64,000 nt of DNA from Pirellulales bacterium (GCA_963829655.1 CAWHJG010000002.1:5536594-5600593), one strand, 5' to 3'. Counted from the stretch's first letter, positions 6,810 through 23,644 are shown. Translations and numbers: made by a program. The notes: generated by a model from the sequence alone, not told the origin.

Positions 6810-8387
6810 TCACCCGCTCAAAAAGCTCAACGATCGACACATGGATGCAGAATTTTCGTTGTGTTGTCTTTGGCTGTCAACCGTTGTCCGTGGTTGACCG
6901 TGTTTGTCCGAGGTCTCTTCGCGATCGCGGACACTGCCGGCGCAGTCAACCAGAGACATTGAAAGACACTCCCGGTCGCCACGATGTGCAAGCTGGTGTG
7001 CATTCGCCTGGTCGGTCCCCGTCGCACGTAGCACGGCTAACGCTGGTTGCGGCTCAGGAAGCTCTGGCAGGCCTTCGACGGCGGCCGTCAGGTCATGCTT
7101 GGTTAGGTGGGTATAGCGGTCCATCGTGAGCGTAATCGAGCTGTGACGCGCCAGCTTTTGCACTACCTTCGGGTTTGCTCCGCTCATGGCCAACATGGTG
7201 ATGTAGGTGTGGCGAAGCGCGTGAAAGTCAACGGTGCGACCCTGATTGTCGCGAGGCGCGATACCAGACGCCCTCAGGTCGTGCCGAATCATTGAGGCGG
7301 CAGCGGTCGGCCATTGGCCGGGCCAGAGCTTCTCCGTGGCTGCGCGGCCCTGTAGCCACGGCTTTATCGTCGCCACAGCGCTGCGACGAAGATGCTGCAC
7401 GGTGCGCTCCCTGTTCTTTGAATAACCGGCCTCGACGGTTACGGTTGGCTCGTCGCCAGCCAAGTCGAATGCTGCCGGCGTCAGGCTGCCGCACTCCGCC
7501 GCTCGGAACCCGGTTTCTGAAGCGACGAAGTACAGCATCGCTCTGTCGCGCCCGCTCAGCCAGCGACGCGTCTTTTGGTGCGCGGTCGTGGCGATCAAGT
7601 TGGCCAGCTCGGCCGGGGTCAACGCCCGTCGCTCGATTCGCACATCCTTACGGGCTTTTTTCGTGTCAACTTTGGTGAATGGGTCTTTTGCCATTCGATT
7701 ATTTCGGATCATCCACTTGCAAAAATGCTTCGTACTGGCCAGGTAATAATTCCACGATTGCAAGCCGAATCGCCTCTTGCCGTTGGCATCCTCATCGCGA
7801 CGGTCGGCGAGCCAGACTTCTAGACGGTCTGGGTGAGAGGTCATGTCCGCAATCCACACGTACCCAGCGCCGATGACTGCCTTCTCGGCACGCGCGCACA
7901 CAAGCTGCACGCTCTGTGAGGTAACGCCTTTGTTTTTCATCCACGCGCGGAAGTCTTTTAGATGCTTCGTCAGCGGTTGCTTCGTATGCTCGTCAAACGG
8001 ATCGGACATGTCGGAGTGCCGGCGCTCCGCTTTTTTTACGAGATCAGCGGCCTTCTGCTTCGTCGATTCCAGGTCGGTGTAACCTGGCACGCGCTTCCAT
8101 CGGCCGTTGTGGTCTTTGTATTGCACGTACCACTTCTCCGACTCGGCCAGATAGCCGCGGCCGTCGCGAGTGAGCTGCACTTCGGTTGTGCGGCCGTCGA
8201 TCTTGACGCGGGCGAAGCGCAGCGGCGGCTCCGTGGGCGCCGGGAGGCCGGCCTTCTCCGCCTTTTCGTTCGCGCGCTCGGTTGCCTTCTTGAGCTTCTT
8301 GGCGTTCTTTGTCGTTCGCGGCTGGCTGAGCAGCTCAGCATCCGACGGGAGTGGTTTGGTGTAGAGGGGCTTCAGAATCGACGACAT
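6810..8387 (-). CDS. tyrosine-type site-specific integrase
   Basis: Intact 525-aa ORF. Catalytic region HALRHTYITMLAMSGANPKVVQKLARHSSITLTMDRYTH (H-x-x-R ... Y). The C-terminal tail reads through the putative att core, and its stop codon directly abuts the purM ATG. Confidence 0.9.
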   Translation of the reverse strand: MSSILKPLYTKPLPSDAELLSQPRTTKNAKKLKKATERANEKAEKAGLPAPTEPPLRFARVKIDGRTTEVQLTRDGRGYLAESEKWYVQYKDHNGRWKRVPGYTDLESTKQKAADLVKKAERRHSDMSDPFDEHTKQPLTKHLKDFRAWMKNKGVTSQSVQLVCARAEKAVIGAGYVWIADMTSHPDRLEVWLADRRDEDANGKRRFGLQSWNYYLASTKHFCKWMIRNNRMAKDPFTKVDTKKARKDVRIERRALTPAELANLIATTAHQKTRRWLSGRDRAMLYFVASETGFRAAECGSLTPAAFDLAGDEPTVTVEAGYSKNRERTVQHLRRSAVATIKPWLQGRAATEKLWPGQWPTAAASMIRHDLRASGIAPRDNQGRTVDFHALRHTYITMLAMSGANPKVVQKLARHSSITLTMDRYTHLTKHDLTAAVEGLPELPEPQPALAVLRATGTDQANAHQLAHRGDRECLSMSLVDCAGSVRDREETSDKHGQPRTTVDSQRQHNENSASMCRSLSFLSG

Positions 8388-8399
8388 CGATCCGCCTTT

Positions 8400-8903
8400 C
8401 TATTTGCTGTGTCGCCGCGAGCGGCAACGCGTGATGGTTACGATCAACGAGAGTCCAACCAAAAGCACACTTGCGGGCTCCGGGACAGTGAAGCCCTCGA
8501 AGCGTCCGGTCGCAAGCGGCGCGAATATCCAGCCGCGTTGCTGTGTGAACGGCTCGACAAACTCGACGCGCAAGTCGGAGCCCGGAGCAATCGGGCCATC
8601 GACCTCGACCCAGCGCCCTGGAGTTTGCCGCGTGATGTACCAGCCAGTGAAGTCGTCGCCGGGCCAGGGCGGCTGATTGGCGATGAGCATGTCGCCGTGG
8701 CTCAGTGTGATGCCGACCTCGGACGGCGGTGGCACGCGGATTCCAGGGCGGACCTGGAGTTGGAAGAGCGACGCCGATTCCGACAGGTTGGTGATGTGGA
8801 ACTTGTCGAGTGACACGATCGTCTCGAAGGCGATCGGAGTCGGCGGAGCTGCGAATGATGGCGTGGCGAGCAGCAGCATTGCGGCGACAAAAGTGGTTCG
8901 CAT
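8400..8903 (-). CDS. secreted PEP-CTERM-anchored protein of unknown function
   Basis: ATG at 8903 gives the signal peptide MRTTFVAAMLLLATPSFA. The C-terminus VPEPASVLLVGLSLIVTITRCRSRRHSK shows PEP, then a TM helix, then a basic tail. Confidence 0.6.
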   Translation of the reverse strand: MRTTFVAAMLLLATPSFAAPPTPIAFETIVSLDKFHITNLSESASLFQLQVRPGIRVPPPSEVGITLSHGDMLIANQPPWPGDDFTGWYITRQTPGRWVEVDGPIAPGSDLRVEFVEPFTQQRGWIFAPLATGRFEGFTVPEPASVLLVGLSLIVTITRCRSRRHSK

Positions 8904-8955
8904 GGGACTGGCCTCCAGGTTTGGTTGCGCCTCCATGCGTGTGAACGATTCCTAG

Positions 8956-9396
8956 TTAATCCGACGCAAACGACCGGATCAATGTGTCGCAGCGGGAACG
9001 GAGCGCGGGGAGCTTCTCTTTGGGAACAAACTCGGCGGCGACGTCAGCGAGCGACCCGGCGATGGCCGTGACATCCGCCTTGCTGAAGGATTCGGCGGCG
9101 CGGCGTCCGAATTCTTCCGGCCACAGCCTTTCCAACAGGAACGCGGCGGCGTGCCAGTTGCCTCGGCCGGCGGCCGCGTTGATCAGCGAAAGCAATCTGA
9201 ATTTCCCCGCAGTTTGGGCCCGGCCGTAGTCATTCGCGAAATCCGGGTCGCGCTTTAGTTCACGCCGGATCGAGCGGGCATCGACGCCGACGTAGCCGGC
9301 GGCCTCTTTCTGTGTCATTCCGGTCGAGAGGAGCACGACCAGATCATGCTTTTTCATTGCGTCCATCGATCGCGGGCGTCCGTTTGCGTTTGGCAT
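8956..9396 (-). CDS. helix-turn-helix protein, small-terminase-like/resolvase-HTH-like
   Basis: HTH LSTGMTQKEAAGYVGVDARSIRREL followed by GNWHAAAFLLERLWPEEFGRR. In my memory this motif is typical of phage small terminase / HTH proteins. A paralogous gene lies at 37671..38443. Confidence 0.5.
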   Translation of the reverse strand: MPNANGRPRSMDAMKKHDLVVLLSTGMTQKEAAGYVGVDARSIRRELKRDPDFANDYGRAQTAGKFRLLSLINAAAGRGNWHAAAFLLERLWPEEFGRRAAESFSKADVTAIAGSLADVAAEFVPKEKLPALRSRCDTLIRSFASD

Positions 9397-9477
9397 GAGT
9401 TGATTCCGTTCTTCAGTTGGGGTGGGGGGTTTTGTCCTCAAAAGTGTGAATCCACAAGGGCCGCGGCGAAATTCCGG

Positions 9478-9930
9478 TCACAAAAGACGCTTCTGCTGGT
9501 CGCTGCTGCGGCCTTGGCGTCCGCCCTGGCCGGTGTTCACTTTCAAACAGGTGATCTCATACCGGCGGTACATCGCGGCCGTCGCGTCGTTACTCTCGAT
9601 CGCCAGATACCTCTCCGGTTCGATCCCGTGCTTCAGCATGATCCGCTCGGTGAGGACGTGCTGCTTCCAACGCGGTGCCGTCCATCGGTGTTCGTTGAAA
9701 TGGGCTTCGTCGGGTCGCCAGCCGGTGAGCTGCTCGATATGGTCCAGCGTCGCTTGCTCGAATTCCCGTCCGCGATGCGTGACCAGGGCGACGTGGTGAG
9801 CCTTGACCAGCTCGACCAGGGGTAAGCGGTACAGCTCGGCGGCGACGTCGGGCCGAAACCGCCCGGCCTTGTGCGAAGTGGCCCAGGAGTTGGCGACCAG
9901 CGTGTAGTTCAGGTCGAGCAGAATGATCAT
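9478..9930 (-). CDS. HAD-like phosphatase-fold protein (degenerate motif I)
   Basis: Start MIILLDLNYTLV (DxDxT-like, with N in place of the second Asp). Later LVTH and IESND motifs. Its ATG overlaps the stop of the upstream recombinase as ATGA (9927..9930). Confidence 0.4.
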   Translation of the reverse strand: MIILLDLNYTLVANSWATSHKAGRFRPDVAAELYRLPLVELVKAHHVALVTHRGREFEQATLDHIEQLTGWRPDEAHFNEHRWTAPRWKQHVLTERIMLKHGIEPERYLAIESNDATAAMYRRYEITCLKVNTGQGGRQGRSSDQQKRLL

Positions 9931-11189
9931 TTCGCAGCTCCGTTGCGCTCGGGTCGCGGCAACACTTCGCCCGCGCGAACACCAGGCATCAGCGAGTTGT
10001 CGATGTAGCCCATCGTCACGGACAGCGCGGAGTGTCCCAGGTGTCGGCAAGCCTGCTCGACGCCGACGGCCGCCGCCAGGTGAGTCGCGCTTGTGCGCCT
10101 GATCCGATGAAACAGGTCGCGGCGACTGTCCGGCAAGCCAGCCTTGCGCAACAATCGGTGGTAGAGCTTGTAAAACGTCCTCTTGTGCATCGGCACCGGA
10201 AACAGCAGCTCACGCTTCGGCCTTCTGATTTCTGAAATCGCCTCGATAGTCTGCTCGTGCAAGTAGAATCTTTGCTCCGCGCGGTTTTTCATCAGCTCCG
10301 CCGGCACGGTGAGCCACCGGCTGCGCAGGTCGATCGCCGACCACGGCAGCAACACGGCGGACCGGAAGCGAATTCCAGAGTCATAGAGAACGAGGATCAA
10401 CGCCGACCAAAACCGACTAGCGGGAATCACGCCGATCGTTCCTTGCTGCGTCACGCACGTCGCCAGCAGGCGGCCGAGCTGCTCCATCGTCCAGGCAGTC
10501 GGGAGCCGCTTGTGTCGGGGGAGCCGCTCGTTGTCGGGGTGATCGATGCGCAGCTTCCGCTTCACGCTAAATCGCCATAGCGCCCGCAGCTTCGCCAGGC
10601 GGTTGTTGATCGTGTCGTTTGACATTCGGCACTCGCTCAGCTCGGCGGCGAAGTCCATCAACAAATCGTCGGTCAGGTCCAGGATGCCGAGCCCCGGTTT
10701 GCGCGTGAACCGCAGTAGCCCGCGGACGGCAATATCGAATTGCTCCCGCGAGCCCTGGTTGCGGCCGACGAGTCGATAAGGCGCGTAGGTGTGCTGGAGG
10801 AAGTGCCACAGCGTGCCAGGCTCGTCGATGGGTTCCGGCTCGTCGCGGCGTCGAGTCCAGCGGCCACTAAGAGCTGGAAACCGATCGGGCCTCGCCTGTT
10901 TCAAGATCATGCGCAGCAACCAGCGGTACTTTGTGACCGTGATCGGCGCGTACTCCTGGGCAATGCACCGCCGTCTCATTTCGTCCAAGTCGTCGTCGGT
11001 GATTTCGTCGATCAGCAGCTTGCCAGGCTGACTGCATTTGACGCATTCGAGCAGGGTGATGGCCGAAAGGAATTGGTGCCGATAGACCCGGTCTTTTCCG
11101 GCCAGGCGGTCGGGCGCGAACTCGGTGATGAAATAACCCCGGAGTGTTGTCCCCGACCCGACAGTGACGTTGCCTGATACACTTTTCAT
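9927..11189 (-). CDS. second tyrosine recombinase/integrase
   Basis: C-terminal catalytic region LFHRIRRTSATHLAAAVGVEQACRHLGHSALSVTMGYI. Internal ATG at 11189 (MKSVSGNV) chosen over the track start at 11255. Confidence 0.85.
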   Translation of the reverse strand: MKSVSGNVTVGSGTTLRGYFITEFAPDRLAGKDRVYRHQFLSAITLLECVKCSQPGKLLIDEITDDDLDEMRRRCIAQEYAPITVTKYRWLLRMILKQARPDRFPALSGRWTRRRDEPEPIDEPGTLWHFLQHTYAPYRLVGRNQGSREQFDIAVRGLLRFTRKPGLGILDLTDDLLMDFAAELSECRMSNDTINNRLAKLRALWRFSVKRKLRIDHPDNERLPRHKRLPTAWTMEQLGRLLATCVTQQGTIGVIPASRFWSALILVLYDSGIRFRSAVLLPWSAIDLRSRWLTVPAELMKNRAEQRFYLHEQTIEAISEIRRPKRELLFPVPMHKRTFYKLYHRLLRKAGLPDSRRDLFHRIRRTSATHLAAAVGVEQACRHLGHSALSVTMGYIDNSLMPGVRAGEVLPRPERNGAAK

Positions 11190-11261
11190 GTGAGTCCTCG
11201 ACACTGAATAAGAGGGCTTACCACGGCCCCGGCGCCTTGCACTGCGCGGGGCCAATCAATT

Positions 11262-11288
11262 CCCTGCCGGCCAACGCGACCGGCAGGG
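11262..11288 (-). terminator. GC-rich hairpin downstream of gene 11300..11689
   Basis: CCCTGCCGG-N9-CCGGCAGGG, a 9-bp perfect stem. Only a weak T-rich tail on the minus strand. Confidence 0.3.
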
Positions 11289-11299
11289 CTCGGACGTTC

Positions 11300-11689
11300 T
11301 CACGTGCTCTTAAAGCCCTTGACGGATTGCACCTTGGTCTCGCCGTCATCAGTCGCCTCGATGACGGCCTCGATGTGTTCCTCGAAAACGTCGTCGTATG
11401 TGCCGTTGAAGATGGCGATGGCCAGGTTGCCGTAAAAGTCGATCGCTGAGTGAAGATCCTTCATCAACTGCTGATCGATCATTTCGCGGTGCTCTCCGTG
11501 AAGCTCCATCACCTTCTCAGTCGTCATGAGGGCCGGGCCTTGGCTAAACGCCGCCATGAAGAGCGCGCGAGCAGCGGACAGCATGTCGTTGCCCGACCAT
11601 CCCGACGGTCCAGGCTGGAGTGGCTTGCCGTCACGAAGCGCAGCGACGAGCTGCTCTCCGCGCGACTTGTCGAAATTGATCCCGATCAT
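11300..11689 (-). CDS. hypothetical protein (element-borne, acidic C-terminus)
   Basis: Intact 129-aa ORF with protein-like composition. The opposite-strand ORFs are Arg-rich shadows. No motif recognised. Confidence 0.5.
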   Translation of the reverse strand: MIGINFDKSRGEQLVAALRDGKPLQPGPSGWSGNDMLSAARALFMAAFSQGPALMTTEKVMELHGEHREMIDQQLMKDLHSAIDFYGNLAIAIFNGTYDDVFEEHIEAVIEATDDGETKVQSVKGFKST

Positions 11690-11767
11690 TGTGTTGTTCC
11701 TTTGCTTGTTGAAGTAAATCCCCGCCGGCCGCGAGCACCGACGGGGGTTGCGCTACGGACCTTTCAG

Positions 11768-12193
11768 CTAAACGGTTTTCGAGTACAAGGTCGGGTCTGA
11801 GAATTCGGCCCACGCACGACGATCCGCCTTCGACATCTCCCACTCGACGACGATCGACCAGGCACGTCCGCACGGCGTCCGGTATGACGCGAGCACCTTG
11901 CGTTGCAGACCTTCGGTGAGCCAGAAGTCGAAGTCGCCGGCGACGTGATCCGGTTTGCCGACCGACAGCAGCACGGCAACTTCTGGACTCCACTGCATCG
12001 CCGTCAGCAGGTAGCGCTCCCGCCAGTCGGCGGGGTGCTGCTGCTGCATCCAATGGAGCTGCGAGCGGGCAAAGAACTCGGCAACCTCCGCGTCGGTCTC
12101 CACGTCGCCGCCGCCGAAGTCGATCGGCTTAGCCTTCGCCACCGGAGCGATCGCGGCTCCGCACAGGGTTAGGATCATTTCTCTCCGTCTCAT
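11768..12193 (-). CDS. hypothetical secreted protein
   Basis: Internal ATG at 12193 preceded by GGAGA. N-terminus MRRREMILTLCGAAIAPVAKA looks like a signal peptide. It lies in frame within track ORF 11768..12628. Confidence 0.5.
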   Translation of the reverse strand: MRRREMILTLCGAAIAPVAKAKPIDFGGGDVETDAEVAEFFARSQLHWMQQQHPADWRERYLLTAMQWSPEVAVLLSVGKPDHVAGDFDFWLTEGLQRKVLASYRTPCGRAWSIVVEWEMSKADRRAWAEFSDPTLYSKTV

Positions 12194-12628
12194 GAGTATC
12201 TCCGTTAGAGTTGGGCCTCGACGACCGCGCCGAGGCCACTGGTGATGTGGACACAACGACGCTAACCGTCGAACCGGGACGACTCCCAATCCCTGGCGCA
12301 GTCGCTCCGCGATCTCCGCATGGGACTGCGACAGTTGATTCCGCACAAAGCGACGCCAGGTCGGCTCGCTGTGCTCGTCGAGCTTCAGCTCGGCGCCTGC
12401 GCCGTCGTGATACACAACGATGCTCTCCAGAGAGTCCAGCCACCATTCGATCTCGCCCGGGTCGCCTGGCTCGTCGAACGACGCCGGCACGACGGGGCCG
12501 ACTCGATAGGCGATGTCCGCGGTGAAGGCGACCGGGAACTCCGTGTCGTATTCGCCGGTGAAGCTGATCCGACCCGCTGGCCGGCTGCGCGGTTTGACGC
12601 GCGACGGAGAAGTAACTAACGTGCTCAT
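12194..12628 (-). CDS. hypothetical protein; 3' end uncertain (reads in frame into the next gene)
   Basis: MSTLVTSPSRVKPRS...FDEPGDPGEIEWWLDSLESIVVYHDGAGAELKLDEH... The tail after ~12300 becomes Arg/Pro-rich. A neighbouring frame ends ...ITSGLGAVVEAQL-stop just before the next ATG, so a frameshift is possible. Confidence 0.4.
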
Positions 12629-12751
12629 GTAAACCTCATCACGGTGGGGTTTGCCAGGCCCCGGATGTTATCAGCATCGCGGGGCCACTTTTCTTGAGCG
12701 GCCTACGCTGGCCGCCGCACTCCATCATTATACGTATTCGTATGTAGTGGT

Positions 12752-12795
12752 CAATGCATTTTCGCATTGACAATCAGATGCCAAACTCAAAGAAT
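12752..12795 (+). promoter_or_regulatory. candidate operator plus promoter of the XRE gene
   Basis: Inverted repeat CAATGC-N6-GCATTG (12752..12769) overlaps TTGACA (12767..12772). After a 17-nt spacer comes AAGAAT (12790..12795). The ATG at 12802 would be at or near the transcript start, giving a leaderless-like mRNA. Confidence 0.3.
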
Positions 12796-12801
12796 CGGGG
12801 G

Positions 12802-13014
12802 ATGGCCGAAGCAATTTCTACAGCTCTGCGGAAGGCGATCGAGGCGTCTGGCGTCTCGCACAACGAGATTGCCAAGGCGACCGGCATCCCCCAGCCGACG
12901 ATCACCAGGTTCGTCAACGGGGCCGATCTGAGGGTGAGCAACTGCGATGCGCTGGCGGCCTACTTCGGGCTGTCTCTGAGCGGCAAGCGGCGGGCTGGAC
13001 GTAAGCGGCACTAA
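12802..13014 (+). CDS. XRE-family (Cro/CI-type) HTH transcriptional regulator
   Basis: MAEAISTALRKAIEASGVSHNEIAKATGIPQPTITRFVNGADLRVSNCDALAAYFGLSL is a typical HTH_3 layout. It is transcribed divergently from the minus-strand element genes. Confidence 0.75.
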   Translation: MAEAISTALRKAIEASGVSHNEIAKATGIPQPTITRFVNGADLRVSNCDALAAYFGLSLSGKRRAGRKRH

Positions 13015-13031
13015 ACACGAAGGATCACGGC

Positions 13032-13175
13032 ATGAAGCCAGTTGACCAGGCTACAAAGGACCATGCGCTCCGCCTGCTGCGCGGCGGCTTATCGAAGCGA
13101 GCAGTCGCCAGGCTGTGCGGCCTCGCTTACAACACCGTCGAGAAAATCCAGCGCGAGGCGACGGCGGCGAAGTAA
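13032..13175 (+). CDS. small HTH protein (47 aa; below the ORF-track size cutoff)
   Basis: Translated by hand: MKPVDQATKDHALRLLRGGLSKRAVARLCGLAYNTVEKIQREATAAK, with stop TAA at 13173..13175. It starts 18 nt after the XRE stop. Confidence 0.45.
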   Translation: MKPVDQATKDHALRLLRGGLSKRAVARLCGLAYNTVEKIQREATAAK

Positions 13176-13193
13176 GCGGCCGGCAAAAGAGTA

Positions 13194-13679
13194 GTGGAGG
13201 TTCCAATGCTGTTTGCGGCTGAGACTGATCCATTCGTGACGATTGCGGTTGCGTTCATCGGCTTCAGTGGCGCTGTGCTGGCCGCTTGGCTCGTCGCCAG
13301 GGCCAGCATCAAGAATACGCAAACCATGGCAGCAGCGGAAACGGAGCGGCAAGCCTACCGTGTCCAGGCGGAGCTGAGAGCGCGCCTCAATGAGAAGAAG
13401 CTGGAATGGATTAGACGGGCGATCTCTGAGCTGTTGGCCATCACAGACCCCGACTTCGAGCCGACGAACTACAAGCGGGTCACTACCCTAATCCACAAAA
13501 TCCAAATGACACTCGATCTGCGACGGGAGGGCGACCGCCAGGTCAATCACTTCACGACGGCTCTCGGCTTAGCAGTTCGGGAGTACGCTCGCGGAGAACA
13601 CGCGCACGATGATCTTTCACGAGCGCATGCCGGGCTGATCGACGCCGCACGGCTTTTCTTTGCCCAGGCGTCCGGATGA
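13194..13679 (+). CDS. membrane-anchored coiled-coil protein, unknown function
   Basis: N-terminal TM helix FVTIAVAFIGFSGAVLAAWLV, then a helical region. Third gene of the tightly spaced XRE operon. Confidence 0.5.
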   Translation: MEVPMLFAAETDPFVTIAVAFIGFSGAVLAAWLVARASIKNTQTMAAAETERQAYRVQAELRARLNEKKLEWIRRAISELLAITDPDFEPTNYKRVTTLIHKIQMTLDLRREGDRQVNHFTTALGLAVREYARGEHAHDDLSRAHAGLIDAARLFFAQASG

Positions 13680-13846
13680 GGCGAAAGAACAGATTGATTG
13701 CTCTAGGGCGTGCGCCGTTGGCCTGATTCGCGGCGTTTTCGAGCGGAGCCACTTCGACGCTGCACACGCTCTTGCACAAAGACGGCCGATCGCGGGGTGT
13801 CCTAACAGTGTGTTGGCCGAAGGGCGACCATGAGGCGTTGCCTCAA

Positions 13847-14107
13847 TCACTTGTCAGTGGGCGGCCCATTACTCATCAGATTCCAAATTGTGCCACCCGC
13901 CGCGATATCCCATATTTGTCCGGTGTGCGTATCAAACACCAAAGTTTGCCCTCCCCTAATATACTGGAATTGGTATCGCCCTGGTCCTGGCGTCGGCTCT
14001 TTCCGCGCGAGGACTAACGCCACGATGAACGCTGCCACTGCGATGAGTTCCAGAAGCGTTCGTAGGCCGAATTGCAGCGGTCGGCGTTGACGTGGCTTCT
14101 CGTCCAT
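13847..14107 (-). CDS. small membrane protein with LQF.LRTLL-type N-terminus
   Basis: ATG at 14107: MDEKPRQRRPLQFGLRTLLELIAVAAFIVALVLA... The upstream part of track ORF 13847..14320 is Arg/Ala-rich and unlikely to be coding. Confidence 0.5.
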   Translation of the reverse strand: MDEKPRQRRPLQFGLRTLLELIAVAAFIVALVLARKEPTPGPGRYQFQYIRGGQTLVFDTHTGQIWDIAAGGTIWNLMSNGPPTDK

Positions 14108-14318: not shown

Positions 14319-15143
14319 ATGGATCGATTGCTCGAAAAAAGTTCATTCCTCGTTCAGTTGGGGACGCTCTTCGGTCCGCTCCTGAAGGTCGTGGATAATC
14401 CTGCTCAATACAACGAACAGGAAAAGGCCGAAGTTGTCGCCAGGTACTGTGCAGAGTGGCATAGCCTGACTGCGGCGTTCAAGCGTTTCTGTACGGCGGA
14501 AGCGGGTCACAACTATCGACCGCAATTTCTCAGCTTGTACTTGGCACTGCAGACGATCGAAACCAACTTTGTCCAGGGTAAAGGCTGGGATGATACGATT
14601 CGTCGGAGCCTCACGGCTGCATCTGCCGCGGTTGACGCTGTGCCAGTGCCAAGGAGTTCGGTCATCCTTGAATCTGGCACACCGTTCTCGACGTATTGCA
14701 AGCTCCGCGCGATGTGCGAGGCGGACGCGACAACCAGCCTTCTTTGGATCGATCCGTACTTCTCGGCGAGCATCTTCATTCGATACCTTTCTGGCGTTCG
14801 ACCCATGGTCCCGATCACGCTCGTCGCCCAAGAGGTTGGCACGACCGCCGGGAAAAAGGACAAAGACCGCTGGTCTGAGTTTCTTGACGTGTCGCGATTG
14901 TTTTCGCAAGAGCGAGGACCGTCGCAATACCGCTTGGTCGTCAACAACAAGTTCCACGATCGATGGTTCGTATGCGATGAGAAGCGAATACGCAGCTTGG
15001 GAGGATCGGCGAAGGACGCTGGCGACAAGGATTACTTTACGATCGCCAATGTCGAGGCGTCGCCAGGAAACCTCCAAGCGATCGCGGACCACATTGCGAA
15101 TGGTACGGAGTGGTTTGGGCCCTTGGTGCCGGTGCACAAATGA
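14319..15143 (+). CDS. hypothetical protein with C-terminal PLD-superfamily-like (HKD-variant, MIT_C-type) motif
   Basis: LLWIDPYFSASIF...ITLVAQE...FHDRWFVCDEKRIRSLGGSAKD aligns with HxK(x)4D(x)6-7G(G)S, with K replaced by R. The N-terminal half is helical. The antisense ORF 14343..15137 is Arg-rich (shadow). Confidence 0.5.
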   Translation: MDRLLEKSSFLVQLGTLFGPLLKVVDNPAQYNEQEKAEVVARYCAEWHSLTAAFKRFCTAEAGHNYRPQFLSLYLALQTIETNFVQGKGWDDTIRRSLTAASAAVDAVPVPRSSVILESGTPFSTYCKLRAMCEADATTSLLWIDPYFSASIFIRYLSGVRPMVPITLVAQEVGTTAGKKDKDRWSEFLDVSRLFSQERGPSQYRLVVNNKFHDRWFVCDEKRIRSLGGSAKDAGDKDYFTIANVEASPGNLQAIADHIANGTEWFGPLVPVHK

Positions 15144-15177
15144 GCTGAAGGGTGGTCAATCGGAATGACCAGCCTCA

Positions 15178-15524: not shown

Positions 15525-15620
15525 CGCGCACCCTCTCTTTGGTTGACGCTAAACCGTCTCTTGAATCGGGCGACGCCGCCGCCCATGATGAATTCCAAAC
15601 AAACCACGTGAGGTTCCGCC

Positions 15621-15974
15621 ATGCAAGTCGCCTGCTCTTCTGCCGTCCGCCTGGTCGCCGCCCTGGCCATCGGCGCCTGCCTGTCTCTTGCCGGCTGTGG
15701 CGGCGGACGCGACGCTGCACTCCAGCGGTACAAGACGGAGCTGGAGCTGCTCGATCGAAAAGAGCAGGAGTCCGAGAAATGGCAATCCAAGTTTCGCGAA
15801 CTTGATGAGATCAGGCTGGCGCAAATACGAAACGGGGATAAGCCCTCGAAGGAAAACCGCGACAAGACCGACGCAGTGGCGAAGGAGGTTTTTGGCAAGC
15901 TCGACGCTGAGCTCGCCGCGCAGCGTGATCGCGTCATTCAGGCCAAGGCGACGCTGGATAGTTTCGGGCATTAG
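15621..15974 (+). CDS. lipoprotein with coiled-coil body
   Basis: Signal peptide plus lipobox: AALAIGACLSLAGC-GGG. The remainder is charged and helical. It overlaps the stop of the convergent TMP-like gene by 4 nt. Confidence 0.6.
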   Translation: MQVACSSAVRLVAALAIGACLSLAGCGGGRDAALQRYKTELELLDRKEQESEKWQSKFRELDEIRLAQIRNGDKPSKENRDKTDAVAKEVFGKLDAELAAQRDRVIQAKATLDSFGH

Positions 15975-17729
15975 AAAATTGCACCCTGCGCCGCCATTCC
16001 GCCGGCGCGTCCCTTCTGCTGGTTTTTCGCCTGCTCGTTGCGCTGAAACTCCGCGACGATTCGCTTGGTCGTCTCGTCCTCTCGCTTCTTGATCTCGTCG
16101 GTCACGGCCCTAGTAAACGTGACCATCAGGCCGCTGATCGTCTGGCCGATCGCTTCGGCCGTGGCTTGACCCTCTTGTTCGATCGCGCGAACGGCCTCTT
16201 CCTTTTGCTCAACCTGTTTTTGCAGCGCTGCCGCTTGTCGGTCAGCGTGTTGGGCTTGGCCTTCGTCACCAATACCAAAACGGCCGCGAATCGCAGCGCC
16301 GCGGTCCATGCGAATGCCGCGCAGGCGTTGGCCCTCAGCGCACCCAAGGAACGGCTCCAACTGCCGGAGCTGATCCTCGCTGAGGTTTGCGCCGGCGTCG
16401 AACTGTTGCTTGAGGCGCAGAAGCTGGTCCTGCTGCATCGGGTTAAGCTGGCCGAATTTCTCTTGCCGGCCCATCAAACCCTCGCGCAGGGACTGTGCCA
16501 GGTCGCGGTGCGCCTGCTGCTGTTGCTTGAGCCCCTGGATCGTCTCCTGAGTCTGGCGAACCTGCTCTTGAGTCTGCCGCTGCGTGAGGGCTAGCTCGGT
16601 TTTCCGCGCCTCGATTGCTGCCTGGCGTGACGACTGCAGCGCGTCGAAGGCACCTTGACGCGTGTTTTCGGTTTGCGTCCACGAGTCTGATCCAATCTCA
16701 CCGCGGACGTTTCGCGAGGCGGTCCCCAGCTCGCCGCGCAGGTCGCTCACGATATCGTCAGCACGCTGCCGGTTGCGTTTTGCCAGGAACAGCGGGTCTT
16801 GCGACGGGCTGAATTCGCCGACGCCGGGCAGGCTGTGCCGCGCGTGAATCATCTGGACGCGCAGCGACTGAGTCTCCGCGGCGATCCTGTCTTGCATTCC
16901 CAGACGGTTAAGCAGGTCCGCACGGCGTTGCTGTGAACGGGCCAGTGCCTCGCTGGAGTCTTTCAACTTCATCAACGACGGCAGCAGCGACCGCTCGCCG
17001 TTCTGTAGGGCGTCGATGCCCAGCGCACCGCCAGCACCAGCCGCCAGGATGCCGCCGCCGACTGCCAGGCCAGCTCCAGCTCCACCGCCGACAAGTCCAC
17101 CGGCTCCGCTCAGGCCGCCCATCACCGCTGCCTTGGAGCCGCCGAGCATGGCGCCGCCGATCGCAGTCCCTCCGGCCCAGCGGCCGACTTTGCCAGCGCC
17201 GACCAGCGCTTCCTTTGCGAAGTAGTAACCTCCGGCGTATTTTGCCAACTGCTCCGTGTCCCATCCCAATGCGCCGGCGACACCGACGCCGCCAGCGAAG
17301 AGCTGCGCTGACCCTTGCAGTGCGCTGCCCATTGCACGCCGGCTGCGGATTGAATCCTGCATGCGGAGACGCTCGGCCTCGCGCGCTCGAGCGTAACCGC
17401 GTTCGCGCTCTTCGATCGCGGCCTTGTGTGCCGCCGTCTCGGCGCAGCATCTGCAACTTTTCGTTGAACGCCTGCTTCTCCTGGCGGGCCCGCTCGCGAA
17501 TGCTGCGGAGCTGCTCCTTCTCCCACGCCTTGGTGGCGCGGTCGATCTCTTTGATCTCCTTGTCCATTGCGCGCTCGATGCGCTTTATCTCTTGCTCGAT
17601 CGTTGTGCCGAGTTTTTTGGCCTCGCCCTGCGCGGACTGCAGCTCCTGCTTGATGGAGCCGGCGCCGCCGCCGCCCTTGTCCATTTCCATTCGGACCTTC
17701 AGGACCACTTCGCGGGTTGTGTCGCTCAT
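15971..17729 (-). pseudogene. tape-measure-like protein (coiled coil plus glycine-zipper hydrophobic block); one frame break
   Basis: ORF 16908..17729 (MSDTTREVVLKVRMEMDKGGGG...QAFNEKLQML) continues as AETAAHKAAIEERERGYARAREAERLRMQDSIRS... in the frame of ORF 15971..17362. The switch is near 17440. Gly-rich block GGLSGAGGLVGGGAGAGLAVGGGILAAGAGGALG. Confidence 0.55.
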
Positions 17730-17739
17730 TGTGTTGGCC

Positions 17740-18069
17740 TCACCTTCCTTGGTTTTGGTCTAAGTCGATTGCGCCCTGTACGACAGCGACCGGTCTCCCA
17801 AATTGATCGCGGATCAAAATGTGGGCTCGCTGGTCGTCAACGTACACGGTCGCCCGTGTCCGGCCCTGGTCGTCATACACATGGATCACGGCGTCGTCGG
17901 CACTGACGAGCATCGACGCGAGCTGCTTGCCGTCGCGGGCCATCACGCTGCCGCCAGCGTCTCCGTTGTCCGAAGCGTGGAACGTCGCGCGAAACGAGCC
18001 ATCGGGCCACTCGGCTGTGAGCTGTCGCGTACCTGGTTCGTCGTCCGGTTGCTGTGATTCCTCCGCCAT
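17740..18069 (-). CDS. hypothetical protein
   Basis: ATG at 18069 (MAEESQQPDDEPGTRQLTAEWPDGSF...). It ends 10 nt before the TMP-like gene start. Confidence 0.45.
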   Translation of the reverse strand: MAEESQQPDDEPGTRQLTAEWPDGSFRATFHASDNGDAGGSVMARDGKQLASMLVSADDAVIHVYDDQGRTRATVYVDDQRAHILIRDQFGRPVAVVQGAIDLDQNQGR

Positions 18070-18315
18070 TCGACCCTCAAAAGATTGCCGATTTGCTCGT
18101 TGTCTCGTGTAACCAGTTGCCCCGTCGTGGTTTCCGTTGTGTGCCGGTTTTGATTGCACACGCCCATGTACATGATTTGTAAAATCCCCGCTCCGCGGCC
18201 GGGAAAGCGAGAAACCGGCCGGGAGCGGGTTACGCCGCCACGCGGCCGGGAAAGGGAAGCCCGACCGGGAGCGGTTTCACTGGCGCGGGCCACGATGCAA
18301 CCCGCGCCGCGTGTT

Positions 18316-19230
18316 TCAATCCCAGCGCATGTCCCGCCATGCGCTAGCCGGCGCACTGTCGATTCGCTTTTGCACTTCGTCCCGCTGCGCTTGCAGGCCC
18401 TGAATCCTCTCTTTAAGCGCGTCGATGTGCGCCAGGTGGCCGCGGAGGGTGCTAACGTCGTCGGCCGTTCCGTAGTACGAAGCCGGATTGGCGATCGCGG
18501 CCCGAGCCAGGGCAACGATGTCGCCGGCTGACGGAACGTTGATCTGGGCGCGGTTGTACTTGAATTCAAGATCCCACATTGCTTTGTCGAGCCCATCGGG
18601 GCCATGACCCGCCATCGTCAGTGCGTCGTCGATCTCCTTTGCCTCGGCCGCCAATTCAGCAAGCCGGGCATGGTAGGACCGGCCTGCCGTCTGATGCAGA
18701 TACTGCTGAGCATTCATCACCTTCATCCGCGGCAATCCAGTGCTGTGGTGGTAAGGGTGCTCGTTCTCTCGGCGTCTTACATCGGCCAGCGCCGCCTGTA
18801 GTGGTCGCAGCCTTTCAGAGGCCGCGGACTCCTCGCGCTGCCGGATTGTCGCAATCTCCGATTTGAGTGCATCGCTGGGCGCAACGCGCTCGGCTTCTCG
18901 AAGCGCAGCGATGGCCGGCTCGATCTCACGCACCGTCCGAATCTGCGCCTCAAGTGCGTTGGCCTCGCCGGTCATGCCGATCAGCTCGCGTTGCGCCTGC
19001 GGCCAACCCTCAACGGTCTCTTGCGACTGGCGACGCTCCCGGGCCAGCTTCAGGTGCCGTTCGTAGTCAGACCTGGTCTTTTCCGCGGCGACCATGCGCG
19101 AGCGAATTTCCATATCGCTGAACTCTTCGCCGGCCGCCGAGCGAATGATCATGTCGCAGTATTCTGCGAGCGATTCACCCAGCGGCTTGAGGCCCATTCG
19201 TGGTTCTTCTTGAAGTGTGGCGGTGGCCAT
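18316..19230 (-). CDS. hypothetical alpha-helical/coiled-coil protein
   Basis: ATG at 19230 (MATATLQEEP) with AAGGAAA upstream. Long helical heptad-like stretches. It does not look like an HK97-fold capsid protein. Confidence 0.5.
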   Translation of the reverse strand: MATATLQEEPRMGLKPLGESLAEYCDMIIRSAAGEEFSDMEIRSRMVAAEKTRSDYERHLKLARERRQSQETVEGWPQAQRELIGMTGEANALEAQIRTVREIEPAIAALREAERVAPSDALKSEIATIRQREESAASERLRPLQAALADVRRRENEHPYHHSTGLPRMKVMNAQQYLHQTAGRSYHARLAELAAEAKEIDDALTMAGHGPDGLDKAMWDLEFKYNRAQINVPSAGDIVALARAAIANPASYYGTADDVSTLRGHLAHIDALKERIQGLQAQRDEVQKRIDSAPASAWRDMRWD

Positions 19231-19279
19231 CGTGATTTCCTTTTTTGGTAAACGGTGAAACAAAAGGCGAGTGCAATGA

Positions 19280-20301
19280 TCAGCGGTAACAACCGATGGC
19301 TCGGGCCAGGCCCTTCGAGTCGGCCGGCAACTTCAGGTCGTCGTTGTCATGGCGGTCGCGCCGCGACTCGGTGAACGCGATCGGACGCTTGCGGGCCGGG
19401 GCGCGGCGACGGGCCAGTTTGGCCCGCAGGTCGCCCTCACCGTACAAACGCTGGCGTGTTGACTCGGTGATCGGCTCGTCGTCGTTGCCTCGCAGGTCGC
19501 CGGCGTCCTCGATTGCGTCGGTCGCTTCCTCTTCGGCGGCCAACAGCTTTTCGAGACGCTGCAATTTTTCGCGCTTGGTGAGCGACTGGTCCTGGACGAT
19601 GCGATCGATCGCCTCGCGGAAAGCTTCGTTTGCCTTGTCGCGCACGTTCGATCGTGGTCGGAAGGCGCGGCTCGTCCTCGTCCTCATCGCCCGACTCGAT
19701 GAGCAGCTCCAGCTCGTCCATGGAGCGATTCGGGCTGCGAAGCTCGGCCGCTACGCACTGCGCCGGAGGGCATGCGGAACGGCCGACGCTCTTGCGTCGA
19801 TTCAAACAGGCTGCTGGACGTTGCCGGGTTCAAAACCAAATCAACGCTCTTCACGCGCTCGATCGACTCGACAATTTCCTTTCCGCCTTGCCTGCGCGTT
19901 ATGGCGTTCGCGTGGTGCGACAGGCCCATCTTGCGTGGGAAGCGCTCGACCTGTTCCAGCACGCTTTCGGCGAGCACGTGGCTCTTGATGTAATGCAGGT
20001 CACCGCGGAGCCCATCGTCGGCCAGGTACACGTCGCGCAGCTCCCCGAAACGGTCAGTCATTGGCCGCTGGCCGTTGGGGTCGCGCTTGGTCGGGTGGTC
20101 GATGTAAACTGTCGCCGCTTCGTAGAGCGGCACGGCGTTGCGAATGGCATCGCGAGTGTACTGCCGACCCTTGCTCGGGGCCTCAAAGCCGAGGATCTTC
20201 ACGTCGCGAATGATCCCAGCGCCGCGGTCCACGCGACCACCGCCGGCGGCTCGCTCCTGCAGCTCCACGCGGCAGCTTGATCTGGTCAAGGTCATGCTCA
20301 T
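19280..20301 (-). pseudogene. phage head-maturation protease/scaffold-like protein; two frame changes
   Basis: GAGIIRDVKILGFEAPSKGRQYTRDAIRNAVPLYEAATVYIDHP...GLRGDLHY...VKSVDLVLNPATSSSLFES resembles prohead protease (S78/U35-like) layouts from memory. The acidic segment AAELRSPNRSMDELELLIESGDEDEDEP and the tail DKANEAFREAIDRIVQDQ... lie in two other frames, with switches at ~19790 and ~19650. Confidence 0.4.
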
Positions 20302-20361
20302 TTTTCGATTCCCTTCGGTTGTGAATGCCGCGCTCCGCGCGGCGAAAGAACTACTGGTTTG

Positions 20362-20380
20362 ATTTACACTCTTTGTAAAT
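20362..20380. promoter_or_regulatory. AT-rich perfect inverted repeat upstream of the protease/scaffold-like gene
   Basis: ATTTACA-ctctt-TGTAAAT in an otherwise GC-rich tract. A GCCGCGC-tcc-GCGCGGC hairpin follows at 20327..20343. Confidence 0.3.
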
Positions 20381-20427
20381 AGCTCGTGCCTTTGACTTTC
20401 CGCCAACTGCCGCCGCCTCGTGCACAA

Positions 20428-20616
20428 TCACTTGCCCACGGCCGGTGGACCGCGGCTCCCGGTCGCCGGCTTCTCCTGGCCGCTGCTCTCGCGCAGTTGG
20501 GTGCATCGGACGTTGTAGGTCCGAAGGATGGTTTTCAACGCGGGGCGCAACACGATGGGGGCCGGCGGTCTGCCGACGTGGTCGGGGACTTCGAGAGTCA
20601 GGTCGTATCGGCTCAT
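20428..20616 (-). CDS. hypothetical small protein
   Basis: 62-aa ORF. GGAGGT lies 5 nt upstream of the ATG at 20616. Confidence 0.4.
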   Translation of the reverse strand: MSRYDLTLEVPDHVGRPPAPIVLRPALKTILRTYNVRCTQLRESSGQEKPATGSRGPPAVGK

Positions 20617-20635
20617 GCGTTACCTCCGGGTCGTC

Positions 20636-20742
20636 GGACCGTTGGAACGTACGGGGGCCCCTATAAGGGCCCCCCCGTCCAACGGTGCAACGGTCGTTGG
20701 ACCGATACCGTGCGCACGCTCCCGTCCAACGGTGCAACGGTC
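20636..20742. other. iteron-like repeat cluster plus GC hairpin (candidate replication origin or packaging site)
   Basis: 22-bp direct repeat CCCGTCCAACGGTGCAACGGTC at 20674..20695 and 20721..20742. Inverted partial copies (CCGTTGGA / CGTTGGAC) at 20638..20645 and 20695..20702. Hairpin GGGGGCCC-ctataa-GGGCCCCC at ~20653..20674. The cluster lies immediately downstream of the helicase gene. Confidence 0.45.
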
Positions 20743-20744
20743 TC

Positions 20745-22361
20745 TCATTGGTCACCTTCCGCTCGCTTAAAGCCGCGACGTGGTGTCTTGCGGTCTGACT
20801 TGTGAACGCCGCATTCCTCGACCAGGCCTTGCCGCATAAGGTCGAACAGGATCGCGCGGGCCTTGTCCTCACCGACCCCGGCCGCACAGCGGATATTGCG
20901 CAGCGTTTCGCCGGCGGGGAACTGCTGCAAAGCTCGAAGCACCTTCTCAACGTCAGCCTGTCCCGAATCCAAGTCACGCCGCTTGCGTTCGGACTGTCGC
21001 AGCTCCTTCTCTACCGCCCTTACTTCGCTGCTGGGAATCACGCGCACGTTCCATTGCCGGCCTTGTGCGGCGTTGTTGGCCCCTTCGTCGATATCGAGCC
21101 CCCACAGCGAGCTGTGGCCCGCGGAACCTCCGCTTCGCAGCCAAAGCTCGTGCCGGCCTGTGCCCTCTTCGTATGCCTTGCGGCGATTGACGAGTAGCCA
21201 TTGCCGCGCAAATTCCGACCAGCCGCTGTACGCCAATTCCTCCAGCTCCAACGGATCGAACCGACCTTCGAGTCGTCCCTTCTTGGTGTGATGGGCCACA
21301 ATCAAGAGCACGCCCTCAGCGCGACACATGGCGGCCAACGGTGATAGTGCCTCTCCCATCGCGAAAATGTTTCCAGCACGATCGCTCATTCCGTCAAACG
21401 CCAAGTAAGCAGGATCTACGATCAGACAGCCGAGCGACCGCTGCCGCGCGAGCTTCGCCATGGCGTCAAGTGATTCAGCGCGGTTCACCTTCGGCACGAG
21501 CGGCACGACGGTAAACCCATTTAGGCTCGACAGGTCGCAACCGGCAGTCGCGGCGATGCGCTTCGCTGTCTCCGCCAACGTCGCCATGCCTGACTCACCG
21601 CTGAAGATGGCGACGTTTTTCGGCTCAGCAACTCGGAACCGACCGAGAAAGTAACCGCCGCTTGCAAGGCTGATCGCCAGGTCAAGGAGAAGCGAAGTCT
21701 TCAGAGACTTATGCGGGCCGCCGACGATCGTCGGCTGTCCATCGACAACCAATCCGTCGATCGCGTACCGAAGTTCAAACTGGCCCTCAGCGAGATCGGC
21801 GCCGCTGTACTGCTCGAAGCTGATTGCCGTCCCAGCTTCCTCCTTCGCGACCGATGCAATGGTTTGCGCATGGCGAACCAGGTCGGCGGTGGTCGCGCCA
21901 TTCCGGGCATGCTTGATGCCGTCGATCGACCAAAGCAAATGCCGGCGGCGAACGGCTGTGTCGTGAACGTCGCGCGCGTAGTGTGCAGTATGCGCGGCGA
22001 CCGGGTGCTCGTTCGTAATCTCGGCGAGAATCGCCTTCCAGTTCATCGCCGGGAATTTCGCTTCAAGGCGGGGCGCGAGAAGTAGCGCGTCGATGGGCTT
22101 ACCGTCTCGACGCAGATCGGACATGCTCGTAAAAATCCGGCGGTTGTCCTCATTCCAAAAATCCTCTGGCGCTACCTTTAGTGCGTCGAATTCCTCAGTC
22201 GCCAGTTTGATCATCAATCCCCCGAGCAGCGCACGTTCGGCCTGCTGGTTGTTTGGCGGATCAGCCTCTAACAGCTTGTCGAGCGGGTCGGGCGCCGGTT
22301 TTGTCTTGCGCGTTGTGTGGCCGTTCCGTGGCGTCGTGCTTGCATCCATGCGGGTGCTCAT
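20745..22361 (-). CDS. replicative helicase-like protein (DnaB N-terminal-like domain, RepA/AAA_25 RecA-type ATPase, C-terminal winged helix)
   Basis: QQAERALLGGLMIKL... is DnaB-N-like. P-loop region IVGGPHKSLKTSLLLDLAISLASGG. LIVDPAYLAF and LLIVAHHTKKG are Walker-B/sensor-like. ATG at 22361 overlaps the excisionase stop as ATGA. Confidence 0.8.
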   Translation of the reverse strand: MSTRMDASTTPRNGHTTRKTKPAPDPLDKLLEADPPNNQQAERALLGGLMIKLATEEFDALKVAPEDFWNEDNRRIFTSMSDLRRDGKPIDALLLAPRLEAKFPAMNWKAILAEITNEHPVAAHTAHYARDVHDTAVRRRHLLWSIDGIKHARNGATTADLVRHAQTIASVAKEEAGTAISFEQYSGADLAEGQFELRYAIDGLVVDGQPTIVGGPHKSLKTSLLLDLAISLASGGYFLGRFRVAEPKNVAIFSGESGMATLAETAKRIAATAGCDLSSLNGFTVVPLVPKVNRAESLDAMAKLARQRSLGCLIVDPAYLAFDGMSDRAGNIFAMGEALSPLAAMCRAEGVLLIVAHHTKKGRLEGRFDPLELEELAYSGWSEFARQWLLVNRRKAYEEGTGRHELWLRSGGSAGHSSLWGLDIDEGANNAAQGRQWNVRVIPSSEVRAVEKELRQSERKRRDLDSGQADVEKVLRALQQFPAGETLRNIRCAAGVGEDKARAILFDLMRQGLVEECGVHKSDRKTPRRGFKRAEGDQ

Positions 22362-22627
22362 CGTGCTAGTTGCCCCCGTTCCCAAGTTGCGGGGCATCCT
22401 TCTTCAATCCACTCACGCAGCTCGTCGGCGCAAAAGCGCACAAGCCCGCCAATGCGGAGCTTCGTGAGCGGAAACTCCCCCCGCGCAATGAGTCGATCAA
22501 GAGAGCGTCTGCTGATGTCGATCGCCTTCGCCGTTTTTGTCGGCGACAACAGTTGGCGGCCGTCATCGACGCGCGGACCTGGAGCGGTCGGCTCCACCTG
22601 GTCCGTAGGCGTGGCAATGCAGATCAT
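22358..22627 (-). CDS. excisionase/AlpA-type HTH DNA-binding protein
   Basis: LLSPTKTAKAIDISRRSLDRLIARGEFPLTKLRIGGLVRFCADELREWIE is the classic excisionase-family HTH pattern. Confidence 0.7.
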   Translation of the reverse strand: MICIATPTDQVEPTAPGPRVDDGRQLLSPTKTAKAIDISRRSLDRLIARGEFPLTKLRIGGLVRFCADELREWIEEGCPATWERGQLAR

Positions 22628-22638
22628 GGCGCGGCCCT

Positions 22639-22863
22639 TTACGCTGAGGCCGCGACAGGATGAGCGACGTGACCGTTGCGGCCGGCCCTGGCTGCCAGGT
22701 AGGCCACGAACTGATCGACGTGGGTTTCGGTGTAGATGCGATTACCGACCCCGTCGTAGCGGGGCTCGTCGATGTGGCAACAGTCGATCGCATGCTGCAC
22801 GGTGTACGGCCTCACGTTGTGGCCGCGGGCCTTCAGCTCTGAGAGAAATTCTCGTCTGGTCAC
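22639..22863 (-). CDS. hypothetical small protein (GTG start)
   Basis: GGAGGT-ccacc-GTG at 22863. VTRREFLSELKARGHNVRPYTVQHAIDCCHIDEPRYDGVGNRIYTETHVDQFVAYL. The upstream part of the track ORF looks non-coding. Confidence 0.4.
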   Translation of the reverse strand: MTRREFLSELKARGHNVRPYTVQHAIDCCHIDEPRYDGVGNRIYTETHVDQFVAYLAARAGRNGHVAHPVAASA

Positions 22864-23183
22864 GGTGGACCTCCACGGTTGTAAACGGCCTGCGCGGAGC
22901 AAAGCGCCGGGGCTGACCGTCGATGAACTCGAAACCACTGTTGCAATCGCCACGTCGCGCCGCTGCTCTCCCTCAAGAGCGAGACGAGTTGCTTGACGAT
23001 TGTTGCCGCCGTCTGGCGGCCATTCGTTTTTCTCCGTACTACGGTGCCGCCTGGGCAATCTCCGTGCTACGTGGGCTGTCAGAAAGCCCGTCTTCAGTGG
23101 TCTCGATGCCGTGGATCGGCCGTGGGGCGGGTATCTCCTGGTTGCTTACAACAACCACACCGCCAACGAGAATAAGAAGTAAT

Positions 23184-23546
23184 TTAGAAATGCGACGCCG
23201 CTTGGTCAATGCTGCCGCGCGCAGTTTTTTGTCGCGCCATGCGAATCAGTCCGCCGACACCTTCACAGTCTCGTCGGACTCGAGCGCCGCGCAGCGGCAG
23301 CGGCTCGTCGGACGGCGGCGGCCCGATCAGGTCGATGAGACCTTGCACGCCGAGCGACCCGATCGTGGGACTGCCGCCGTCACTGAGCAGCGGCGCCAGT
23401 GGGTCGATCTCGAAGCCCGACGGCTCAATCATGGCCAGGAGCTGCCGCCGCTTGGCGTCAGTCAGGCTCGGCCAAGCTCGGACAATCAAAGACAGGTCGG
23501 CGTCGCCCGGTTCGTTTGTGCAAGCCGTAGTACGACTTTCCGGCAA
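23184..23546 (-). CDS. hypothetical protein (first gene inside the right element end)
   Basis: 120-aa ORF. DLSLIVRAWPSLTDAKRRQLLAMIE motif. No family recognised. Confidence 0.45.
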   Translation of the reverse strand: MPESRTTACTNEPGDADLSLIVRAWPSLTDAKRRQLLAMIEPSGFEIDPLAPLLSDGGSPTIGSLGVQGLIDLIGPPPSDEPLPLRGARVRRDCEGVGGLIRMARQKTARGSIDQAASHF

Positions 23547-23644
23547 CTCGTCAAAAAACCGGACCGAACGGGCGGTTCCTTCGCAATATGGGATGAATGC
23601 AGAATTCTAGGAACGCAGCGAAAGAACTGTCAAACCCGTCGCAG

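Follow-up and report, generated by a model that had tools for sequence, protein, structure and literature searches.

Introduction

Phage-inducible chromosomal islands (PICIs) have been described by five core functional categories of genes and by a list of "forbidden" structural genes (PMC10085698). That account does not mention the phylum Planctomycetota, and our literature search for phage satellites in Planctomycetota found no paper. We analyzed a 64-kb stretch of the genome of a Pirellulales bacterium (GCA_963829655.1 CAWHJG010000002.1:5536594-5600593; the whole stretch is referred to as the window). A block of ~16.75 kb in this Planctomycetota genome (6855-23606, counted from the first nucleotide of the window) sits between the purM promoter and the purM open reading frame (ORF). 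The block is a site-specifically integrated, phage-derived mobile island that is unable to build its own virions, and a self-sufficient prophage is excluded. Tentatively, at a probability of about 45%, we favor a PICI-like, helper-dependent, satellite-like island over a decayed prophage.

Each of the five PICI categories of PMC10085698 has a counterpart or candidate counterpart in the element. It shares with PICIs such as the SaPIs and the EcCICFT073-type islands an integrase, regulators of the AlpA and XRE types, a candidate replicase with iterons 3′ of its gene, a candidate gene of the capsid-morphogenesis type, a terS homologue and accessory/defense cargo, and it is likewise devoid of tail, holin, portal, terL and head-tail connector genes. 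Its length of 16.75 kb lies within the size range reported for PICIs. The primase-replicase category is represented by a helicase with a DnaB N-terminal (DnaB-N) domain, an AAA_25 domain and adjacent iterons, in which, unlike the PICI replicases, no primase domain was found. The capsid-morphogenesis category is represented by a prohead protease and a scaffold-like domain detached from it, which are not homologues of the described PICI genes and whose part in size redirection is presumed. The element also differs from PICIs in that it has no sequence relationship to the described families, has int and alpA at opposite ends of the prophage map, carries two integrases, and uses a promoter as its target instead of an att site typical of PICIs.

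Two other kinds of satellite were compared. Capsid-forming PICIs have the int/alpA/replicase left half, terS and the prohead serine protease in common with the element, whereas the capsid, portal, head-tail adaptor/connector and terL genes that define them are missing from it. P4-like satellites share only int, alpA and a helicase with the element, and psu-delta-sid, epsilon and the alpha primase-helicase had no PHROG or Pfam match in any ORF.

Insertion at the purM promoter

The junctions of the element and the predicted att sites are as follows.

6841-6854: attL core ATGGATGCAGAATT; the exact 10-mer shared with attR is 6845-6854
23593-23606: attR core ATGAATGCAGAATT, a 13/14 match to the attL core
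23604-23633, minus strand: native purM promoter TTGACA-18-TAGAAT in the host flank, cut off from purM and reading into the element
6852-6880, minus strand (read from 6880 to 6852): element promoter-like site TTGACA-17-GAAAAT, now reading into purM
6876-6951: three copies of GGTTGAC/GTCAACC, candidate arm or operator sites
Predicted attP (excised circle): GGGCGGTTCCTTCGCAATATGGG-ATGAATGCAGAATT-TTCGTTGTGTTGTCTTTGGCTGTCAACC
Predicted attB (empty target): CAACGATCGACAC-ATGGATGCAGAATT-CTAGGAACGCAGCGAAAGAACTGTCAAACC

A comparison set of 80 purM loci from related Planctomycetota genomes (2.39 Mb) was scanned on both strands. In 29 of the 80 relatives the motif TTGACA-N18-TAnAAT precedes purM, its -10 element ending at a distance of 28-54 nt from the purM ATG, and these sites made up 29 of the 30 occurrences in the 2.39 Mb. 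Since the motif is almost confined to this position, it is the conserved purM promoter. As TTGACA-N18-TA(A/G/C)AAT, seen within 120 nt upstream of purM, it is strikingly kept across distantly related Planctomycetota. The window has a single copy, on the minus strand from 23633 to 23604, which abuts the right repeat and points toward purM, 16.8 kb away. When the flanks were joined at the repeat to reconstruct attB, the -10 element ended 42 nt from the purM ATG, within the 28-54 nt of the relatives. Because the promoter is contiguous with purM in the relatives and 16.8 kb away from it here, 6855-23606 is an insertion between promoter and purM, and that a mobile element has integrated at the purM promoter is close to certain. 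The first-pass annotation of the window had proposed an integrated phage-like element with these junctions, and the displaced promoter at the right junction bears it out.

The relatives also provide an empty site at the level of synteny. In 38 of the 80 loci a homologue of the window ORF 24329-25138, the product of which is cytochrome-c′-like, lies divergent from purM, mostly 70-550 bp upstream, and no homologue of an element gene or of the GNAT gene (23645-24196, Acetyltransf_3) was found in any of the 80. An empty site had been anticipated between purM and GNAT; such a site does exist, but in the relatives it lies between purM and the cytochrome-c′-like gene, with GNAT absent. The nearest PurM relatives come from Pirellulales/Thermoguttaceae-type metagenome-assembled genomes at up to 78% identity, the collections searched hold none above 78%, and the intergenic DNA of these relatives does not align to the element junctions.

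We first favored GNAT as cargo inside the insertion, with a right end at ~24200-24330, since the relatives have purM beside the ORF 24329 homologue without GNAT. This was rejected: GNAT is separated from the element by the native purM promoter, and that alternative junction has no repeat to support it. From the promoter position, GNAT is therefore outside the insertion on the native side, the flanking gene it was initially taken for. Its absence from the relatives' purM loci makes it a separate, lineage-specific acquisition between the purM promoter and the cytochrome-c′-like gene. The start codons of purM and GNAT are only 83 nt apart in the reconstructed attB. The intergenic region between GNAT and ORF 24329 contains a perfect 11-nt inverted repeat, CAAAAGGGGAC ... 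GTCCCCTTTTG (24235-24301), with 45 nt between the arms.

The 10-mer ATGCAGAATT was reported at both transitions in the first-pass annotation, which called it suggestive and not proof. It is present exactly twice in the window, at 6845 and 23597, and the repeat extends to 13/14 identity. The window itself served as the source of empirical nulls for estimates of chance. Two 200-bp segments 16.75 kb apart had a 10-mer or longer in common in 9% of cases, and the actual junction segments (291 x 104 bp) would do so in 5%; the 13/14 match had an empirical P of ~0.008 (0.8%), and the local-alignment score of the junctions was reached by chance in 3%, with no significant similarity past the core. Taken alone, the direct repeat is suggestive, no more, and the earlier caution is upheld. 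At the sole G/A mismatch, attL has the host base and attR the element base, as would be expected for a crossover within ATGCAGAATT. The exact 10-bp core overlaps the -10/+1 region of the purM promoter.

If there were no discrete element, the repeat would be accidental and the block would have arisen by a chromosomal rearrangement or be lineage-specific DNA of an ordinary kind; a 5-9% chance for the 10-mer alone would allow for this. It is effectively refuted by the conserved promoter, which is displaced by exactly the proposed block, and it also has against it the integrase at the junction and the lack of element genes in all 80 related loci, so that we regard it as scarcely credible. The locus shows what is seen with elements moved by tyrosine recombinases: an integrase beside the junction, direct repeats at both junctions, and an uninterrupted target in relatives. 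GC content and GC skew did not discriminate the element boundaries, and searches for Rfam families, tRNA and tmRNA returned zero RNA genes.

Predicted exchange of promoters

Some prophages that insert into a host gene restore the lost part from their own sequence, as with the 3′ end of a tRNA. The element likewise carries a surrogate for the displaced host sequence, and the target gene can stay functional. In contrast to those prophages, it would replace a promoter -35 and spacer instead of coding or tRNA sequence, and the exchange would be reciprocal. The element promoter-like site and the native promoter at attR are in register relative to the core, which the -10 of the element site overlaps, and a palindrome, GTCAACC-N9-GGTTGAC (6876-6898), covers the -35 of the element site.

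Judging from this arrangement, integration would swap the upstream halves of the two promoters. The purM gene would then be served by the element promoter, and the native purM promoter would now read into the alpA-helicase operon of the element. Transcription is predicted to start ~7 nt beyond the -10 at 6852 for purM and beyond the -10 at 23604 for ORF 23184. No convincing intrinsic terminator was found just inside attR, where the fold was no better than that of shuffled sequences (z-score +0.65). In the excised circle, the element promoter would face ORF 23184, ORF 22639, alpA and the helicase gene across attP.

Integration, regulation and replication genes

6810-8387, minus strand: int1, tyrosine integrase (Phage_integrase, 2e-18)
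9927-11255, minus strand: int2, second tyrosine recombinase (Phage_integrase, 2e-14)
12727-12795: switch region with back-to-back promoter-like sites
12754-13014, plus strand: XRE/Cro-C1-type repressor (profile matches)
20632-20742: putative origin, directly 3′ of the helicase gene
20745-22361, minus strand: replicative helicase with a DnaB N-terminal domain and a RecA-like AAA_25 domain (profile matches)
22358-22627, minus strand: AlpA/HTH_17 excisionase-type regulator (7.6e-9)

These genes agree with the first-pass annotation, which had listed a tyrosine integrase at the left edge, a second recombinase, an AlpA gene coupled to a DnaB-N/RecA-type helicase gene, iteron-like repeats and a divergent XRE switch. 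The HxxR...H...Y residues of a tyrosine recombinase are visible in Int1. Its homology to relatives stops at about residue 440-460, and the rest of the ORF runs across attL, so that in the integrated form the int1 stop stands directly against the purM ATG (TGAATG). The tail past the catalytic domain has 95 residues. In the reconstructed circle, int1 and ORF 23184 are read through attP as one open frame of 651 codons, which is probably a matter of chance in a genome of 60% GC. The possibility of two elements in tandem with a common att site was rejected, as the core has no third copy and the identity of Int1 to Int2 is only 24%.

The alpA stop overlaps the helicase start as ATGA. The 538-aa start of the helicase agrees with the source-genome annotation, and its Walker residues are invariant in the alignment. 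The putative origin has two perfect 22-bp direct repeats (20674-20695 and 20721-20742, 47 bp apart), an inverted partial iteron copy (20632-20650) and a GC palindrome (20653-20674). In the switch region, one promoter-like site runs on the minus strand from 12754 to 12727 (11/12 matches) and one on the plus strand from 12767 to 12795 (10/12), and their -35 boxes are half-sites of the palindrome GTCAATGC-N6-GCATTGAC (12749-12770). The true start of the XRE gene, as read from the sequence, is possibly the ATG at 12802; with the plus-strand site ending at 12795, a transcript from about this ATG may be leaderless.

Assembly genes and the search for a virion module

8956-9441, minus strand: small-terminase-like helix-turn-helix (HTH) protein, terS-like (phrog_4102, 2.8e-14)
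18316-19230, minus strand: ORFan in capsid position, predicted all-alpha
19280-19687, minus strand: scaffold-like domain, homologous to the C-terminal part of relatives' fused proteins
19684-20301, minus strand: prohead (capsid maturation) serine protease (sequence family and predicted structure)

The phrog_4102 match confirmed the small-terminase-like HTH gene that had been noticed in the initial reading. The single head-protease/scaffold-like gene of that reading was right for the protease, by structure, and comprises two ORFs, one encoding the protease and the other a scaffold-like C-domain detached from it. The protease belongs to a family of at least 4,294 proteins, in the alignment of which H69 and S128 are invariant. 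Its AlphaFold model (pLDDT 85) matched T4 gp21 (5jbl) in Foldseek with an E of 8e-7 and a probability of 1.0, and herpesvirus proteases were also among the structure matches, lower in the list. Most relatives are fused protease-scaffold proteins of 300-400 aa.

Homologues of the terS-like gene and of the protease gene occur in one group of tailed phages with a phrog_38 terL, a phrog_21 portal and an HK97-type major capsid protein (MCP). In viral contig L230, which has the same protease family, the terS homologue is directly upstream of terL and portal. Among viral contigs carrying this protease family, MCP was found at most 4 kb downstream in 55/55 and portal upstream in 51/55. No terL, portal, capsid, tail or lysis gene, as an intact temperate tailed prophage would have, was found in the element by Pfam, PHROG and NCBIfam profiles, tblastn or structure; head-tail connector and holin genes were likewise not found by the profiles and tblastn, and a search of the whole window revealed no trace of terL, portal or MCP, even as remnants. 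ORF 18316, the one unassigned ORF of any size in the capsid position, was considered as a cryptic capsid gene and rejected, the low-confidence model being all-alpha and not an HK97 fold. The earlier statement that no large terminase, portal, major capsid or tail gene could be recognized is thus upheld by profiles, tblastn and the predicted structure of ORF 18316. Since no complete virion module emerged from the profile searches, both readings offered at the outset, a decayed prophage and a satellite or PICI-like element, still stand.

Relatives of the element and weighing of the readings

The element was compared with temperate tailed phages from IMG/VR (L187, L184 and L230), with which it shares the protease (44-48% identity), terS (31%), int1 (32%) and alpA (41%). 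These phages have a full terS-terL-portal-protease-X-MCP module; of this module the element has terS and the protease alone, 10 kb apart. One explanation starts from a temperate tailed phage of the same type as L187 and L230 that entered the chromosome at the purM promoter. Deletions and rearrangements would then have stripped it of terL, portal, MCP, tail and lysis genes, and it would have gained a second integrase and cargo; such a cryptic prophage may still excise and would otherwise be inert. In favor of this explanation, homologues of every one of the protease, terS, int1, alpA and HAD genes are known from bona fide phage contigs, and L187 carries protease, alpA-like and int1-like genes together. 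It does not account for the lack of any pseudogene trace of terL, portal and MCP, nor for the intact catalytic and Walker residues, and the order terS ... int1 / att / alpA-helicase-origin-protease cannot be derived from terS-terL-portal-protease-MCP by deletions alone. We consider a decayed prophage possible, if somewhat unlikely.

The satellite-like island is favored on two grounds: the element has the functional inventory of a PICI, and its gene order is not derivable from related phages by deletions alone. The order is not collinear with that of the phage relatives, and related int/AlpA/AAA_25 backbones sit in small islands, not in phages.

Several observations weigh against a satellite-like island. 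The terS and protease genes are ~10 kb apart and the two integrases are unrelated, which gives the element a mosaic look. The scaffold-like ORF is in a different frame from the protease ORF, with an ATGA overlap (19684-19687). In the Gly-rich/coiled-coil gene (15971-17729, minus strand; 586 codons), a +1 shift near 17440 joins the ORF starting at 17729 to ORF 15971-17362. ORF 18316 had no homologue among 5.8 billion proteins and no sequence match in the PDB, and all element and source-genome proteins tested were singleton clusters in a clustering at 90% identity. No helper phage is visible within the window. Finally, no second locus combining the helicase with the protease or terS was found among the neighborhoods examined, and there is therefore no family-level conservation that would show selection for the reduced gene set. 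The frameshifted coiled-coil gene, the split of protease and scaffold, the singleton status with ORFans and the two integrases can equally be read as marks of prophage decay. The frameshifts are weak evidence of it. A host alpha-amylase/GlgX-like gene (25300-27500) switches frame at least three times within ~750 bp (tblastn frames 3, 1, 3, 1) and is either a pseudogene or a locally error-rich assembly; as it also switches frame, the shifts in the element may be local assembly errors.

Relatives of the AAA_25 helicase numbered 381 proteins at E ≤ 1e-10. Their neighborhoods (80 metagenome and 11 viral loci) have no more in common with the window than alpA, xre and int, and a single-protein scan of viral contigs for the same island gave nothing. 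A conserved family of the same island was rejected, the helicase relatives adjoining only an occasional int, alpA or xre gene. Two of the loci, L109 (2182-13251) and L081 (7598-14457), are small islands with an AAA_25 helicase or primase-helicase, AlpA/XRE and a tyrosine integrase, and they carry restriction-modification cargo, a type III res gene and methylase in L109 and an MmeI-like gene in L081. This pattern suggests a widespread class of small replicative defense islands.

These islands raise another explanation, in which the element is a non-packaged, integrative and self-replicating island with an int/AlpA/helicase backbone that captured a few phage genes, the protease and terS-like HTH genes, without a role in transfer. 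L109 and L081, the loci closest to it in backbone, lack phage structural genes and carry restriction-modification cargo of type III or MmeI type, and the element has a PDC-S05 defense candidate and a PEP-CTERM protein of its own. Profile searches of the element ORFs detected no relaxase, type IV secretion system or other transfer function, and it is not evident why an island of this kind would retain a prohead protease in intact form together with a scaffold-like domain and a terS homologue. We consider this explanation improbable.

Under the favored satellite-like reading, Int1 would recombine attP with attB at the purM promoter. Integration would exchange the promoters, placing the element site TTGACA-17-GAAAAT before purM and the native purM promoter before the alpA-helicase operon. 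The XRE repressor would hold the divergent switch at 12727-12795. AlpA and Int1 would excise the element, and the DnaB-N/AAA_25 helicase would replicate the circle from the iterons 3′ of its gene. The TerS-like protein and the prohead protease with the scaffold-like domain may then redirect helper-phage capsids, and the cargo would comprise the PDC-S05 defense candidate, the PEP-CTERM protein and the HAD phosphatase. The whole of this taken together, a satellite lineage, the first in Planctomycetota, that hijacks helper capsids by its own maturation protease, scaffold-like domain and TerS, and that by a reciprocal promoter swap wires the purM promoter to its excision/replication operon and its own promoter to purM, is a long shot.

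Cargo and other open reading frames

8400-8936, minus strand: PEP-CTERM-tailed secreted protein, cargo (21.0 bits against a cut-off of 20.7)
9478-9930, minus strand: HAD/PNKP-phosphatase-like protein, cargo (phrog_32036)
14319-15143, plus strand: candidate anti-phage defense gene, cargo (PADLOC PDC-S05, 2e-8)
11300-11689 and 11768-12628, minus strand: two ORFs, the first genes of the leftward operon, without profile matches
13194-13679, plus strand: ORF, function not assigned
15549: ORF, function not assigned
15971-17729, minus strand: Gly-rich/coiled-coil gene in two frames
17740-18159, minus strand: ORF, function not assigned
20428-20616, minus strand: ORF of 62 aa with GGAGG 7 nt upstream of its start
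22639-23058 and 23184-23546, minus strand: two ORFs, function not assigned

The Gly-rich/coiled-coil gene had been described as tape-measure-like. This label found no support: the gene had no Pfam, PHROG, NCBIfam or PDB match.

Significance

Mobile elements of Planctomycetota have barely been described, and this locus provides a precisely delimited one with predicted attL, attR, attP and attB sites. Should the element be no more than a remnant, it would amount to a cryptic prophage of the ordinary kind, neatly inserted. If it is functional, its minimal set of a protease, a scaffold domain and terS, with no capsid gene, could reveal a new hijacking strategy. The predicted mode of integration is unusual, with a crossover inside the -10/+1 region of a conserved housekeeping promoter and replacement of that promoter. 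The promoter swap, if true, would couple the activity of the island to host purine-gene regulation.

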